Shown here piece by piece: positions 6,731 to 17,260 of a stretch of DNA of 28,909 nt. A program made the position numbers and the translations under genes. Source of the DNA: a virus (taxonomy: Duplodnaviria > Heunggongvirae > Uroviricota > Caudoviricetes); IMG/VR virus record IMGVR_UViG_638341082_000005, positions 1 to 28,909 of that record; one strand, 5' to 3'. The notes beneath the pieces are model-generated. The model searched no databases. It was not told the origin of the DNA and worked only from the letters and a program-made list of their open reading frames with translations. Numbering within the stretch: position 1 is the stretch's first letter; each line of letters begins with the position of its first letter.

Positions 6731-7274
6731 GCATCATTGGAAAGTGGAAAAACAACCTGAGTGGTACGTGAAAGCTGTCAGAAAAACTATCGCGGCATTG
6801 CCTGGGGGTTACGCTGAAGCTGCTGACTGGCTGGATGTAACAGAGAACGCTTTATTCAACCGCCTTCGTGCAGATGGCGATCAGATTTTCCCGCTGGGAT
6901 GGGCAATGGTTTTACAGCGCGCGGCTGGCACTCACTACATTGCGGATGCTGTCGCACAGTCTGCTGGTGGGGTGTTCGTATCGCTTCCTGAAATTGAGGA
7001 AGTAGAGAACGCCGATATAAACCAGCGCCTGCTGGAAGTCATCGAACAGATCGGGAATTACTCAAAGCAGATTCGTTCGGCAATCGAAGATGGGGTCGTG
7101 GAGCCACACGAGCAGACAGCAATTAATGATGAGTTGTATCTGTCAATTTCGAAGCTCCAGGAGCATGCAGCACTGGTCTACAAAATCTTCTGCGCTCCAG
7201 AAAAGAGTGACGCCCGCGAGTGTGCAGCTCCGGGCGTCGTGGCGTTTTGTGTCTGTGGAGAAACTAACGCATGA
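6723..7274 (+). CDS. CII-like regulator (CP76-type), putative
   Basis: GTG start after AGGAGG; position immediately after Cro; resembles CP76-type CII proteins from memory. Confidence 0.45.
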   Translation: MGKHHWKVEKQPEWYVKAVRKTIAALPGGYAEAADWLDVTENALFNRLRADGDQIFPLGWAMVLQRAAGTHYIADAVAQSAGGVFVSLPEIEEVENADINQRLLEVIEQIGNYSKQIRSAIEDGVVEPHEQTAINDELYLSISKLQEHAALVYKIFCAPEKSDARECAAPGVVAFCVCGETNA

Positions 7275-7875
7275 ACAGTTTAACGGCAAATAACCGTTTG
7301 TCGCAACAGCTGGTGGTCAGTGTCGCTGAACACCTGTTGTTACGGTATGAATGCAGATTACCAAATCACCTGGCTGTAAGTAACCACAGAGAACTTTACC
7401 TGACTGTGGGGGGCGAGTTGTGCAGGAACTTAACCGCTGGTTTCGTGACGGAAGAGGGCTTTATGTCCATGTTATTCGTTGGGAGCCAGAAACACAGCGC
7501 GTTATCTATCTTCGCAAAGACTACCCGCATGAGTGCTTTAGTCCTTTGTGGAAATTCAGGCATGATTTTGTTGAGTGTGAAGGACCACCAGCACATTGAT
7601 TCTGCCATTCCGGGACGTTACACTGTTCAGGCACCTTATAAAGCGGGTGCCGGGCGTGGAAACCCGGAATTCACCAAAGCGCACAACCGCGCTCTTGCGG
7701 TTTTTTTGTGTAATGAGCAGCATTACGCCCAAATTATGGTGGGGCGTGCAGGGCCAACTTCGGTTGGGCCGGGTTCTTTGGTGACCGGTATTTCCACCCC
7801 TGTACGTCTCACCACCAATAAGGTCGTGGAAAGCCTTGGTGGTGAGTTATTAAAAATCACCAAAGAGGCTGCCAT
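7271..7875 (+). other. ambiguous segment: frame is open but no recognisable protein; contains terminator-like and tetraloop hairpins
   Basis: frame 2 is open from ATG 7271 into the Rha gene; an alternative 59-codon frame (GTG 7420 to TGA 7599) looks more protein-like; AACCGC-GCTCTT-GCGGTT + TTTTTTT at 7685-7709; UUCG-loop hairpin near 7751-7770; 11-bp inverted repeat CTCACCACCAA/TTGGTGGTGAG at 7808-7846. Confidence 0.3.
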
Positions 7876-8422
7876 CATGGCTACGATCCCAACCCTCACT
7901 CAACCTGAAATTGCCATCGTTGATGGTCAGGCTGTTACTTCATCCCTGGCTGTTGCCAACTTCTTCTCCAAACGTCATGACGATGTACTGAAAAAGATCC
8001 GCACGCTTGAATGCTCTGCATCATTCACTGCCCGCAATTTTTCGGTGAGTGATTACACCGATTGCACAGGCCGCAAACTACCTTGCTATCAAATAACCCG
8101 CGACGGCTTTGCGTTTCTTGCTATGGGGTTCACGGGTAAACGTGCTGCCCAGTTCAAAGAGGCATACATCAATGCCTTTAACCAGATGGAGAAACAGCTT
8201 TCAAATCCCTCTGTACTGAGCGACGTTGCACATAACGCCAGCGTTCTCTATTCCTACATTTCATCAATTCATCAGGTCTGGCTGCAGCAGCTTTATCCTA
8301 TGTTGGCAAAAGCCGAATCTCCGCTGGCTGTTAGCTTGTATGACTATATTAATGATGCTTCGGCACTGGCCTGCCTCATAAATTTGTCGCTGAACCCTTC
8401 AGAGGTAAGGGGGCGCAAATGA
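7876..8422 (+). CDS. Rha-family phage regulatory protein (N-terminus may extend to 7271)
   Basis: Rha domain begins at MATIPTLTQPEIAIVDGQAVTSSLAVANFFSKRHDDVLKKIR; AGAGG RBS upstream of ATG 7876; Rha domains normally sit at the extreme N-terminus. Confidence 0.55.
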
Positions 8423-8643
8423 TCCGGAATATTTTCAAACGGTTTACCAATCAGACTTTCCGTTGTCCTCGTCCTGGTCAGTGGTACACCACGCCTGCAG
8501 GGCATGTTCTACGTGTCAGCCTGGTTGACCGTGAATGTCAGAAGGTGATTTGTGAACCGCTGGGCCGTAATTACCGCATCAGTATGCCGCTTATAGCCTT
8601 TTGCTCCGGAAAAAACATGAAGCATCTCGGAGGTGCAGCATGA
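8419..8643 (+). CDS. small hypothetical protein
   Basis: 74-aa ORF with ATGA overlaps at both ends (Rha stop and replication-gene start); no family recognised. Confidence 0.35.
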   Translation: MIRNIFKRFTNQTFRCPRPGQWYTTPAGHVLRVSLVDRECQKVICEPLGRNYRISMPLIAFCSGKNMKHLGGAA

Positions 8644-9458
8644 GTATGGAGCTGATGGTTAAAGCGATGAAAATTCGAGTGGGTAATCCATTGCGAAAAC
8701 TGGTTCTGATCAAGCTGGCTGATAACGCCAGCGATCAGGGTGAGTGCTGGCCCAGCTACCAGCATATTGCTGACCAGTGCGAGATTAGCAAACGTTCTGT
8801 GATGAATCATATTGCGGCTCTTTGTGATTCCGGACTGGTAAAAAAAGTCACCCGGAAAGGTGAAAAAGGTAACTCAAGTAATATCTATCTCCTTCATCTT
8901 GATGGTGCAGGAGATTCACTAGGGGGTAGTGCAAATAATTCACTATCTGGTGCAGCAAATTCACCAGGTAGTGCAGGAGTTGCACCAGGGGGTGGTGCAG
9001 GAGATTCACCCAGAACCAGTCACTCTTTTGAACCAGTCAAAGAACCAGTCAATGAACCAATAGCTGTTGGTGCATCTGCTGATGAGTCTGTGCGAGTTCG
9101 TTCAAACCGACCGGAATACTCTCCGGAGTTTGAGCAGGCATGGCTGGCATACCCCAAACGTGCTGGTGGCAATTCAAAATCTGCAGCCTTCAAAGCCTGG
9201 AAAGCCCGTTTGAATGAGGGGGTAAACCCCGAAACCATGCTGGAAGGTGTGAAACGCTATGCGGGCTGGGTATCTGCGATGGGTAACAGCGGCACACAAT
9301 TTGTGAAACAGGCTGTCACGTTCTTTGGTCCGGATCGTCATTTCGAAGAATCCTGGGAAGTTCCTGCGGTATCTGCAGCCAGACGTGAGGATCCGTACTT
9401 CAAAGCCAGTTACGACAACGTGGACTACAGCCAGATCCCGGCAGGATTCAGGGGGTGA
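8640..9458 (+). CDS. putative replication initiation protein (N-terminal HTH, iteron-encoding linker)
   Basis: N-terminal winged-HTH-like segment (LRKLVLIKLADNASDQGECWPSYQHIADQCEISKRSVMNHI); Gly/Ser/Ala-rich linker encoded by tandem DNA repeats, as in lambda O; start at ATG 8640 after GGAGG. Confidence 0.5.
   Translation: MSMELMVKAMKIRVGNPLRKLVLIKLADNASDQGECWPSYQHIADQCEISKRSVMNHIAALCDSGLVKKVTRKGEKGNSSNIYLLHLDGAGDSLGGSANNSLSGAANSPGSAGVAPGGGAGDSPRTSHSFEPVKEPVNEPIAVGASADESVRVRSNRPEYSPEFEQAWLAYPKRAGGNSKSAAFKAWKARLNEGVNPETMLEGVKRYAGWVSAMGNSGTQFVKQAVTFFGPDRHFEESWEVPAVSAARREDPYFKASYDNVDYSQIPAGFRG
8905..9060. repeat. iteron-like direct repeats (candidate replication origin) inside the replication gene
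   Basis: five copies of a 15-bp motif GTGCAG(G/C)A(G/A)(A/T)T(T/G)CAC starting 8905, 8929, 8950, 8971, 8995 at 21-24 bp spacing, then 2.5 copies of GAACCAGTCAA(A/T) at 9020-9058. Confidence 0.55.
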
Positions 9459-16934: not shown

Positions 16935-17260
16935 AAACCTTCCGCTGGAAAGTGAAACCGGGTATGGATGTGGCTTCGGCTCCTTCCGTCAGGGAGGTGC
17001 GCTTTGGTGATGGTTACTCCCAGCGCGCGCCTGCCGGGCTGAATGCCAACCTGAAAACGTACAGCGTGACACTTTCTGTTTCCCGTGAGGAAGCCACGGC
17101 GCTGGAGTCATTTCTGGCAGAGCACGGGGGCTGGAAAGCCTTTCTGTGGACACCGCCTTATGGTTACAGGCAGATAAAGGTGACCTGCGCAAAGTGGACT
17201 GTGCGGGTCAGTATGTTGCGCGCTGAGTTCAGCGCAGAGTTTAAACAGGTGGTGAACTGA
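16931..17260 (+). CDS. M: minor tail protein M
   Basis: 109 aa, matches lambda gpM; ATGA overlap with H. Confidence 0.9.
   Translation: MKTFRWKVKPGMDVASAPSVREVRFGDGYSQRAPAGLNANLKTYSVTLSVSREEATALESFLAEHGGWKAFLWTPPYGYRQIKVTCAKWTVRVSMLRAEFSAEFKQVVN

Follow-up and report, generated by a model that had tools for sequence, protein, structure and literature searches.

A probable P4/P1-type RNA immunity cassette within the reading frame of a Rha gene in a lambdoid early-right operon

The window analysed here, a stretch of 28,909 nucleotides from a virus of the Caudoviricetes (IMG/VR record IMGVR_UViG_638341082_000005), contains between a CII-like regulator gene and a Rha gene a segment of about 600 bp which had been left as ambiguous in the initial annotation. 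This segment comprises a small gene, termed orf59, and two RNA elements, IsrK and C4, all of them inside one open reading frame (Table 1). It is located inside the early-right operon, with the cII-like gene on one side and the replication genes on the other side.

Table 1. Features of the Rha region (positions in the window).
Feature	Position	Strand	Evidence and details
CII-like regulator gene, 183 aa	6723-7274	+	Pfam Phage_CP76, E 1e-14; phrog_101 (CII-like activator)
Long frame-2 ORF, 383 codons, equivalent of P4 eta	7271-8422	+	ORF list, variant survey, P4 layout
Spacer between CII-like gene and orf59	7275-7419	+	without coding signature of its own
orf59, 59 aa, DUF4222 family, frame 1	7420-7599	+	Pfam, PHROG, substitution pattern
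Putative sigma-70 promoter of IsrK	7596-7624	+	-35 TTGATT (7596-7601), 17-nt spacer, -10 TACACT (7619-7624)
IsrK / P4-seqA-type small RNA	7631-7707	+	Rfam RF01394
C4 / P4-CI-type antisense RNA	7732-7819	+	Rfam RF01695
11-bp perfect inverted repeat	7808-7846	+	arms 7808-7818 / 7836-7846
Rha leader with second target pair b2/a2	7820-7876	+	covariation, duplex lengths, folding
Rha gene proper, 181 aa from SD-proximal ATG	7877-8422	+	Pfam Phage_pRha, codon periodicity

The TGA of the CII-like gene (7272-7274) overlaps the ATG of the long frame at 7271 in the form of an ATGA. In the spacer that follows, variable columns are distributed over the three phases (21/16/15), folding revealed no significant structure (z-score -0.61), and a permissive Rfam scan (E≤1) yielded no RNA family. 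Downstream of it the initial annotation had pointed out a 59-codon frame from a GTG at 7420 to a TGA at 7599, preceded by a G-rich ribosome binding site, and had considered it the more protein-like one. This frame is present as described, the Shine-Dalgarno-like element being a run of six G residues at 7408-7413, and the option of a small gene proved correct. The product of orf59 matches Pfam PF13973 (DUF4222; E 1e-13, 50.9 bits compared to a cut-off of 27) as well as phrog_1343 (E 3e-36), and 23 of its variable columns are third codon positions, compared to 4 and 5 at the other two. In a comparison with ST64B, 21 nucleotide changes result in 6 amino-acid changes in the frame of orf59 but in 18 in the long frame. 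Judged by these substitution patterns, orf59 is a real, conserved protein-coding gene, and the RNA elements are situated downstream of it. Its TGA falls within the -35 hexamer of the putative IsrK promoter.

An Rfam scan, recommended in the initial annotation, detected the isrK and C4 families, both over the full length of the models and above the gathering score. IsrK scored 67.0 bits (gathering score 50, model positions 1-77 of 77) and C4 scored 83.6 bits (gathering score 45, model positions 1-87 of 87). The structured RNA that had been offered as one of several explanations is therefore borne out by full-length matches, and also by covariation of the C4 fold and of the leader pairing described below.

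IsrK is composed of two 5' hairpins, a linker and an intrinsic terminator, which was also found by a terminator scan (hairpin at 7685-7702 followed by a T7 run). Hairpin 2 carries a site b1 with the sequence GTGGAAA (7656-7662) and the linker a site a1 with the sequence TCACCAAAG (7671-7679). Over the 5' part of IsrK, the permissive scan showed in addition a sub-threshold match to the Rfam family c4-a1b1 (7618-7670), and no isrJ homologue was found by Rfam scan in the window. Folding of IsrK alone was no better than that of shuffled sequences (z -1.07). Since its stability is uninformative, the identification of IsrK rests on the covariance model and on the co-variation with C4. The predicted transcription start is near position 7631. 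The promoter-like site in front of it is weak, with 8 of 12 consensus matches, and lies below the threshold of a consensus scan, by which it was not called; neither hexamer varies among 20 divergent alleles, and where the cassette is found in different genomic contexts the shared homology starts directly 5' of the -35 hexamer.

The C4 RNA folds into a 17-bp outer stem enclosing a UUCG hairpin and a second hairpin, with a minimum free energy (MFE) of -44.6 kcal/mol (z -4.1). In the 20 alleles the three helices are 100% paired, including 8 compensatory pairs changed on both sides. A segment a' (7775-7784) is exposed in the loop of the second hairpin, and a segment b' (7791-7797) is single-stranded 3' of this hairpin. 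The 5' arm of the outer stem contains an AUG (7736) in frame with Rha, and a 3' end of the ACCACCA type is visible in the sequence. Instead of closing the outer stem, the 3' arm (7808-7818) is able to pair with positions 7836-7846 of the leader. This alternative helix is 90.6% paired in the 20 alleles, with 3 compensatory pairs, compared to 33-57% in slid controls. The structures which the initial annotation had listed as hairpins and repeats thereby find their place: the "textbook" terminator hairpin with its T7 run is the terminator of IsrK, the UUCG-tetraloop hairpin (CCAAC-UUCG-GUUGG, 7754-7767) belongs to C4, and the arms of the 11-bp perfect inverted repeat are those of the alternative helix.

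Segments a' and b' of C4 are complementary to the sites a1 and b1 inside IsrK and likewise to a second pair of sites in the Rha leader. There, b2 (GTGGAAA) is located at 7826-7832 and a2 (TCACCAAAGA) at 7857-7866, the latter overlapping the Shine-Dalgarno sequence AGAGG (7864-7868). In the 20 alleles the helix between a' and a2 is 96% paired and 8 of its 10 pairs are compensatory, compared to about 40% pairing in slid controls. For b'-b2, a'-a1 and the terminator, column-based counting of pairs was unsuitable because the MAFFT register shifts by one column between allele groups; a register-free duplex search was therefore used to compare cognate with non-cognate partners. Cognate duplexes were longer in all four combinations (a'-a2, 10.45 vs 4.70; a'-a1, 9.55 vs 4.60; b'-b2, 7.10 vs 4.45; b'-b1, 6.85 vs 4.24). 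Across the 20 divergent alleles, on which several of the alignment tests were carried out, IsrK sites, C4 segments and leader sites co-vary three ways, and the variety comprises at least 12 a' and at least 7 b' variants in 19 combinations. On the plus strand of the window, the pair of b and a sites is found at two places only. Further C4 targets were not found elsewhere in the window, where one lone 9-mer is present on the minus strand (17002-17010).

The Rha leader itself is strongly structured (MFE -27.4 kcal/mol, z -5.7). Its hairpin sequesters the Shine-Dalgarno sequence and the AUG, the former being paired in the MFE fold of 20 out of 20 alleles. A leader hairpin in fixed register (7822-7882) was not supported by covariation: 65.0% of the cells were paired in the 20 alleles, compared to 64.9% in shuffles. 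Each allele does, however, fold its own hairpin that sequesters the Shine-Dalgarno sequence.

The product of the Rha gene matches Pfam PF09669 (Phage_pRha) with an E value of 5e-31 (107.5 bits, cut-off 29.9) at residues 21-106 of the 181-aa form, and codon periodicity begins at 7877 (2/11/8). Its N-terminus, MATIPTLTQPE, can be aligned with MATTLTPSHPE of P4 Kil. As the gene under RNA control, Rha may by analogy correspond to P4 kil, P1 icd-ant and Gifsy-1 anrP. BLASTP detected no homology between Rha and Gifsy-1 AnrP (E 2.3), and because of this an antirepressor role of Rha is only putative.

The cassette is present in 1367 of 5426 complete E. coli genomes and also in many Stx-converting phages. 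Together with its promoter it has been transferred as one unit to other contexts, and it also occurs in tandem arrays. Its layout agrees with that of P4 (eta/kil together with seqA and CI), of P1 immI and of Gifsy-1 IsrK. We consider it quite likely that the segment represents an RNA immunity cassette of the P4/P1 type in front of a Rha gene, i.e. an antirepressor-type ("Bro network") gene, in a lambdoid early-right operon. As this is a known kind of switch, the segment is explained rather than new.

A close parallel is the satellite phage P4, whose immunity region reads PLE - seqA - CI RNA - seqC, with eta and kil as nested genes. The two Rfam families are found there in the order of the window, isrK corresponding to the seqA leader and C4 to CI, and an ORF (8168-8812, eta) spans both in frame and ends in the nested 65-aa kil, whose MAT start aligns with the start of Rha. 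As in the window ORF, the long frame of P4 has its start 5' of the internal promoter, shows coupling to the preceding gene (in the window, judged by the sequence, via the ATGA at 7271-7274) and matches Pfam Phage_ASH. The nested gene, however, encodes the 65-aa Kil in P4 but a 181-aa Rha-domain protein in the window, the setting is a satellite in one case and a lambdoid early-right operon in the other, and only in the window does the long frame additionally overlap a real gene unrelated to it, orf59. The published outcome of the control in P4 is Rho-dependent termination at timm. With a2 directly at the Shine-Dalgarno sequence and an intrinsic terminator belonging to IsrK itself, a translational outcome would be more likely in the window.

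In P1 and P7, where Rfam c4-a1b1 and C4 are both matched, the annotated order of immI is a1 b1 - c4 - a2 b2 - icd - ant. Shared with the window are an antisense RNA and its target on the same transcript (with processing in the window assumed by homology), two short exposed segments that pair with one upstream and one downstream site pair, the position of the downstream pair at the ribosome binding site before an antirepressor-type gene, and specificity alleles such as those distinguishing P1 from P7. At the DNA level, the similarity to the cassette amounts to 82-84% over about 55 nt. Unlike P1 and P7, the window has no icd gene or other ORF between C4 and Rha, the target being the ribosome binding site of Rha itself, and the upstream sites are part of a separately terminated IsrK-type small RNA. 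Moreover, the frame through c4 of P1 has stops.

Gifsy-1, matched by isrK, c4-a1b1 and C4 of Rfam, carries IsrK with a terminator, next a C4-type element and last an antirepressor-like gene that is translationally silent (PMC4825925). Its IsrK is complementary to the C4 region, and an AUG in the 5' arm of C4 is the start of orf45. In Gifsy-1, the stop of orf45 overlaps the start of anrP in an AUGA, the two genes being in different frames, whereas AUG 7736 of the window shares the frame of Rha; within the cassette, stops interrupt the frame of anrP but not that of Rha. No relationship was detected between the controlled proteins AnrP and Rha, antQ takes the upstream position that a cII-like gene and orf59 occupy in the window, and the Gifsy-1 locus contains isrJ, which is missing from the Rfam results for the window. 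In N15 and phiKO2 (DNA similarity to the cassette about 70-73%), isrK and C4 are followed by the gp32 ORF, which runs from the AUG in the 5' arm of C4 to Icd/Kil-like sequence. In contrast to the window, there are stops inside the IsrK part of the frame, and the downstream genes are icd-like and ant, not Rha.

The long frame of the window opens ahead of the internal promoter, crosses orf59 (which is read in another frame) and then IsrK, C4 and the leader, and continues into Rha. It has 202 codons before ATG 7877, in agreement with the roughly 200 codons noted in the initial annotation, which had also judged such openness unlikely by chance. Indeed, only 4.5% of synonymous orf59 recodings and 5% of shuffles of 7271-7420 were stop-free. 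Among natural variants, 46 of 47 covering 7200-7950 have no stop in this frame. In the survey of 84 distinct variants of the RNA cassette, the Rha frame is stop-free in 82, the other two frames containing 0-7 stops, and the AUG in the C4 arm is in frame with the gene start without intervening stop in 83. In-frame ATG codons are always found upstream of IsrK, and coupling by ATGA to a long upstream ORF occurs in several independent junction types, including -80 and -53 in other contexts; several of these overlaps lie behind a GGAGG-type Shine-Dalgarno sequence. In a few variants the long frame is interrupted upstream of IsrK. The overlap with the conserved orf59 over 60 codons in another frame is unusual.

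The statement that the extension has no recognisable features turned out to be wrong. Residues 117-201 of the long frame match Pfam PF10554 (Phage_ASH; E 1e-11) and several PHROGs, and the frame-2 translation of 7619-7876 scores 45.7-48.7 bits with Phage_ASH (cut-off 26) in the window and four other alleles. These matches would fit a conventional two-domain "Ash-Rha" protein of 383 aa whose N-terminal domain acts as protein, the RNA matches being secondary or incidental. PHROG 821, a protein model of 324 positions that includes the extension, the annotation of the long CDS in RefSeq/PGAP and phage records, and the frame kept open across variants speak for such a protein, too. We nevertheless regard it as very unlikely. 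The DNA under the Phage_ASH match is the IsrK-C4 cassette and exhibits no constraint at the amino-acid level: substitutions by phase are 13/9/15 in IsrK and 31/32/26 in C4 plus leader, i.e. without codon periodicity, and compared to ST64B the long frame has the most amino-acid changes (21/82, compared to 14 and 16 in the other two frames). In orf59 it is the second positions of the long frame that vary, and in the cassette RNA pairing accounts for the variation base by base. In P4, furthermore, Phage_ASH matches an obsolete "cI protein" ORF overlapping the CI RNA. Neither the phase counts nor the ST64B comparison thus indicated amino-acid constraint in the long frame upstream of 7877, and the purifying selection across the whole N-terminal extension that the initial annotation had associated with a conserved 383-aa Rha protein was not observed. 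Of the extended Rha suggested there, the conventional two-domain protein, lacking periodicity and conservation, is not supported, while the frame that is kept open and coupled by ATGA stands.

Alternatively it might be that Rha starts only at ATG 7877 and that the long frame is untranslated, open due to shared ancestry and G+C-rich stems and annotated as a gene-caller artefact. The good Shine-Dalgarno sequence AGAGG 8 nt before this ATG, the Rha domain beginning at residue 21 of the short form and the onset of coding periodicity at the same position are in line with this, as are the stops in the equivalent frames of P1, N15 and Gifsy-1 and the variants broken upstream of IsrK. Yet the cassette stays open in nearly all variants though the variable a/b words hold TAG and TGA, which are always out of frame, indels are multiples of three, and every context provides an in-frame ATG upstream of IsrK, several with an ATGA overlap and a GGAGG-type Shine-Dalgarno sequence. 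With the precedent of P4 eta, a start at 7877 only appears rather unlikely to us. A role of the hairpin and T run (7685-7708) as a tR-like early-operon terminator read through by antitermination, with IsrK and C4 as inactive relics, would suit the position of the cassette between cII-like and replication genes, and several 1-nt indels in one copy (L075) are what would be expected of decay. Against it speaks the three-way co-variation of a and b, with at least 19 allele combinations, which requires ongoing selection on RNA-RNA pairing; invariant promoter hexamers and the spread of cassette plus promoter as a unit into other contexts and tandem arrays also contradict relics, which we consider highly improbable. 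A frame actively kept open and coupled by ATGA, as in P4 eta, is probably translated for a regulatory purpose. The stops in P1, N15 and Gifsy-1 show that not every member of the family is translated through the cassette.

We therefore return to the RNA immunity cassette and ask how it may work together with the long frame; the following steps are modelled on P1 c4, P4 CI/seqA/eta/kil and Gifsy-1 IsrK by homology. In the lysogen, transcripts from the internal promoter would mostly end at the IsrK terminator, and read-through transcripts would be processed to C4. Pairing of C4 with b2 and a2, together with the leader hairpin, would keep Rha untranslated. Free IsrK, carrying the same sites, may titrate or remodel C4 and so relieve the repression. 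The long ORF is probably translated only on transcripts arriving from upstream. On transcripts from the early promoter, ribosomes would read from ATG 7271 or internal starts through IsrK, C4 and leader, so that neither the terminator nor the C4 fold could form and an N-terminally extended Rha would be made whatever the RNA immunity state. By analogy, translation of the long frame thus probably circumvents the RNA control of the Rha module. In P4, translation of eta prevents termination and makes expression insensitive to immunity (summarised in PMC10111431).

More tentatively, and at slightly less than even odds in our estimation, IsrK-C4 of lambdoid prophages might be a portable module of dual use which combines an RNA lock, an in-frame bypass and a combinatorial specificity code. 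Transcribed from its own promoter, it would produce two RNAs silencing a gene of the Rha/Bro type. Read from upstream, the cassette would be translated in frame, its ATG (often as ATGA) being hooked to any upstream gene, and transcription from the early promoter would thereby bypass the RNA lock and give the extended protein. As at least 12 a' and at least 7 b' variants are matched three ways, one prophage could run up to three tandem modules independently. In the literature examined we found neither the a/b code at population level nor the in-frame fusion to Rha.

The mechanism as such is already known from P4, P1, N15 and Gifsy-1. In the current annotation of E. coli and Stx phages, the cassette has no entry of its own but is covered by a long "Rha family" or "Rha/Ash" protein, and a preprint on Stx phage regulatory regions takes the "Ash domain" as a protein domain of unknown function. 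If this stretch is an IsrK/C4 RNA switch, these regulatory regions are to be read differently. A switch on an antirepressor-type gene beside the lysis-lysogeny genes suggests an input into prophage induction at the RNA level, which has been shown experimentally for Gifsy-1 (PMC4825925). From the a/b allele code it can be predicted which co-resident prophages are able to cross-regulate and which are not, and if the module is indeed of dual use, co-resident prophages need not cross-talk.

All features described in the initial annotation for the segment between the CII-like gene and the Rha domain (7271-7875) were located in the sequence. The ORF listing contains the claimed frame-2 ORF of 383 aa (7271-8422, the long frame) and the alternative ORF of 59 aa from GTG 7420 to TGA 7599 (orf59), a G-rich run was read at 7408-7413, and the terminator scan returned a terminator-type hairpin at 7685-7702 followed by T7. 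The UUCG hairpin lies at 7754-7767, and the arms of the 11-bp perfect inverted repeat at 7808-7818 and 7836-7846. The region is 100% identical in the Escherichia phages PhiR40_1 and PhiR55_1, 99.6% identical in mEp460 and about 85% identical in Salmonella phage ST64B. The sole annotation in these records is "Rha / antirepressor / transcriptional regulator", beside a CII/YmfL-like gene.

The Rfam scan proposed earlier as a check gave exactly two matches in the whole window, both full-length and within this segment: isrK and the C4 antisense RNA (see table). The terminator-type hairpin belongs to the isrK match and the UUCG hairpin to the C4 match, in agreement with the structured-RNA option raised initially. 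The predicted C4 fold agrees with the Rfam model (MFE -44.6 kcal/mol, z -4.1). We regard the identities of both RNAs as practically certain. A promoter-like site, TTGATT-17-TACACT (7596-7624), was unchanged in all compared alleles (specificity variants) of the cassette of IsrK, C4 and Rha leader, and homology across differing genomic contexts begins just upstream of it. Its spacer (7607-7614, ATTCCGGG) forms an 8-bp perfect complement to the 3' side of IsrK hairpin 2 (7663-7670, CCCGGAAT). This pairing would form on upstream-derived transcripts only, which could fold otherwise than IsrK itself.

RNA matches and pairing sites in the segment
Feature	Position	Strand	Remark
isrK (RF01394)	7631-7707	+	67 bits (gathering score 50), full-length
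C4 antisense RNA (RF01695)	7732-7819	+	83.6 bits (gathering score 45), full-length
a'	7775-7784	+	loop of second C4 hairpin
b'	7791-7797	+	single-stranded stretch following second C4 hairpin
IsrK site pair (b1/a1)	GTGGAAA 7656-7662 and TCACCAAAG 7671-7679	+	complementary to C4 b'/a' segments
Rha leader site pair (b2/a2)	GTGGAAA 7826-7832 and TCACCAAAGA 7857-7866	+	complementary to C4 b'/a' segments

The leader site TCACCAAAGA overlaps the Shine-Dalgarno (SD) sequence AGAGG, 8 nt ahead of ATG 7877. Beyond the IsrK and leader pairs, no b-a site pair was found on the plus strand of the window. A single minus-strand copy of the a-site word TCACCAAAG (17002-17010), distant from the cassette and with no b site near, is probably due to chance. 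Related cassettes were gathered from IMG/VR by protein and by an exact IsrK word (87 distinct cassettes, 21 clusters). Among twenty representatives, 12 different a' and 7 different b' sequences formed 19 combinations, and IsrK sites, C4 segments and leader sites agreed with each other in 20/20. Across these alleles the three C4 helices were 100% paired, with 8 pairs altered on both sides. The a'-a2 helix was 96% paired and compensatory in 8 of 10 pairs, compared to 38-46% pairing in slid controls. A register-free search across alleles gave longer duplexes for cognate than for non-cognate partners: a'-a2 (10.45 vs. 4.70), a'-a1 (9.55 vs. 4.60), b'-b2 (7.10 vs. 4.45) and b'-b1 (6.85 vs. 4.24). 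The inverted repeat is also kept across alleles (90.6% paired, 3 compensatory pairs), and the 3' arm of the C4 closing stem can pair with its leader arm instead. A stable leader hairpin burying the SD was predicted in every allele (mean z -3.0); no conservation of its register was found across alleles.

Besides a structured RNA, overlapping small genes or an extended Rha protein had been suggested for this segment. The small-gene option is borne out by orf59, which matches Pfam DUF4222 (E 1e-13) and phrog_1343 (E 3e-36) and varies mainly at third positions, with 23 variable columns there vs. 4 and 5 at the others in the frame comparison among relatives (7420-7599, 47 distinct variants). Its 21 nt differences to ST64B result in 6 aa changes in the orf59 frame vs. 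18 in the long frame. We are confident that orf59 is a real gene. For the extended Rha protein, variable columns by codon phase were 21/16/15 over 7271-7419, 13/9/15 in the IsrK part and 31/32/26 in C4 and leader, all without codon periodicity, which is present from 7877 onward (2/11/8; 47 variants throughout). Against ST64B, 21 of 82 aa were changed in the long frame, exceeding both other frames. Neither the phase counts nor the ST64B comparison revealed protein-level constraint on the long frame upstream of 7877, and purifying selection across the whole N-terminal extension, named in the initial annotation among its refuting evidence, was not seen.

Despite this absence of constraint, the long frame is clearly kept open. 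The whole region was open in 46/47 variants, and indels within it were multiples of three throughout, except in one copy (L075). No stop occurred in the phase of the gene in 82/84 distinct cassettes (0-7 stops in the other frames), and in 83/84 the AUG of the C4 5' arm shared its frame with the SD-proximal start. Cassettes with this in-frame AUG precede Rha as well as two other kinds of downstream gene, a type of 120 aa and one of 77 aa. In all upstream contexts an in-frame ATG was found ahead of IsrK. Where it lies at -359 (the window type, position 7271), -80 or -53, it follows a GGAG-type SD and forms an ATGA with the stop codon of a long ORF upstream. Chance left the long frame free of stops in 4.5% of synonymous recodings across orf59 and, for 7271-7420, in 5% of shuffled sequences. 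IsrK and C4 of the L075 copy (about 1219-1524) have several 1-nt deletions, and its C4-arm AUG and gene start lie in different frames; the copy may be decaying or poorly assembled. Within orf59, an internal frame-2 ATG (7463-7465) stands behind GAAGAGGG. It is the beginning of the PHROG 821 proteins (324 positions) and the first in-frame ATG in variants with the long frame interrupted upstream.

Contrary to the initial description of the extension as lacking recognisable features, the frame-2 translation of 7619-7876 matches Pfam PF10554 (Phage_ASH), and so do those of four other alleles. PF10554 matches a conceptual translation of the IsrK-C4 RNA cassette. The PF10554 match in P4 is the old "cI gene product (AA 1-137)" ORF overlapping the CI RNA (L084 8168-8584, minus strand); the RefSeq label of this obsolete CDS is still "transcriptional repressor". 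P4 epsilon did not match PF10554 and matches PF25738. One preprint took PF10554 as the epsilon profile, and another treated "Rha/Ash" as a two-domain protein.

Rfam matched isrK and C4 in the P4 immunity region in the same order as in the window, isrK in the seqA-carrying leader and C4 overlapping the old "cI" CDS, where the CI immunity RNA lies. The complete P4 ORF of this strand (8168-8812) has 214 open codons, and its internal MMM starts give the 197-199 aa of Eta. It passes through both matches and ends in a 65-aa segment (MATTLTPSHPEF...), which is Kil and whose start aligns with ...KEAAIMATIPTLTQPE of the window. The P4 Bro-network gene eta contains both CI and a constitutive promoter, whose transcript is soon terminated via CI/seqA interactions; Kil is a truncated form of Eta, translation of Eta prevents termination, and CI and seqA relatives in other elements were detected by Rfam C4 and isrK (PMC10111431).

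In layout, P4 eta/kil with seqA and CI comes closest; among antirepressor controls with a characterised function, P1 immI and Gifsy-1 isrK-orf45-anrP do. The window's order of isrK and C4 was also matched in the phage-plasmid N15 and in Gifsy-1, where IsrK was characterised, named a structural homologue of P4 SeqA RNA and found upstream of a processed RNA, STnc1160, analogous to CI (PMC4825925). P1 and P7 matched C4 plus the related family c4-a1b1, the annotated order in P1 being a1, b1, c4, a2, b2, icd, ant. In contrast to the window, Gifsy-1, P1 and N15 have stops in the frame equivalent to the long frame. The controlled gene of the window encodes a Rha-domain protein without detectable kinship to AnrP, there is no icd-type ORF as in P1, and the C4-arm AUG is in frame with Rha, whereas Gifsy-1 has an AUGA-coupled arrangement. 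Also unlike the compared systems, the cassette is placed in a lambdoid early operon and the long frame overlaps a real gene, orf59. Gifsy-1 orf45 (L085 34131-34329, minus strand) is what the C4 element encodes when read from its 5'-arm AUG. The IsrK and C4 parts of the Gifsy-1 "Ash" frame lie in different frames and the anrP frame contains stops; Gifsy-1 would thus seem to derive from an eta-like arrangement by frameshifting.

Tandem arrays of two or three cassettes with differing specificity occur on some prophage contigs, e.g. three cassettes 656 nt apart in L104 (9640-11249); further tandem modules were found in L091, L099, L125, L127, L138, L028, L068, L069 and L076. Each module has its own a/b specificity and often another short downstream gene, of the 120-aa type starting MATVPTSPFLKIE... 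or the 77-aa type starting MATVPALTRLND... In the window, an ATGA (8419-8422) overlapping the Rha stop starts orf74 (8419-8643, phrog_1153). The same start leads into a second IsrK-C4-Rha cassette in L028 (about 2044-2124), suggesting that tandem arrays are built by recombination within the first codons of orf74.

The sequence itself shows which parts are present and in what order, the pairing code, and an open frame coupled by ATGA. By homology, transcripts from the putative internal promoter would yield IsrK and, after read-through and processing, C4 as well. Paired to b2/a2, which lie at the ribosome binding site of Rha, C4 would act with the leader hairpin to keep Rha silent. IsrK, bearing the same sites, would compete for C4. 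In Gifsy-1, translation of the downstream gene rises more than 100-fold when IsrK is provided in trans (PMC4825925). On early-promoter transcripts from upstream, ribosomes would follow the long frame across the cassette and so bypass the lock. We consider the RNA switch as a whole likely; the translational bypass is somewhat favoured by our analysis.

The initial observation is real and is now explained. The cassette is common: of 5426 complete E. coli genomes, 1367 contain it, and PGAP includes it there in a Rha-family CDS, without an RNA feature. The value of the finding is twofold: such annotations (the "Ash domain", an over-long Rha) can be corrected, and an allelic pairing code is described.
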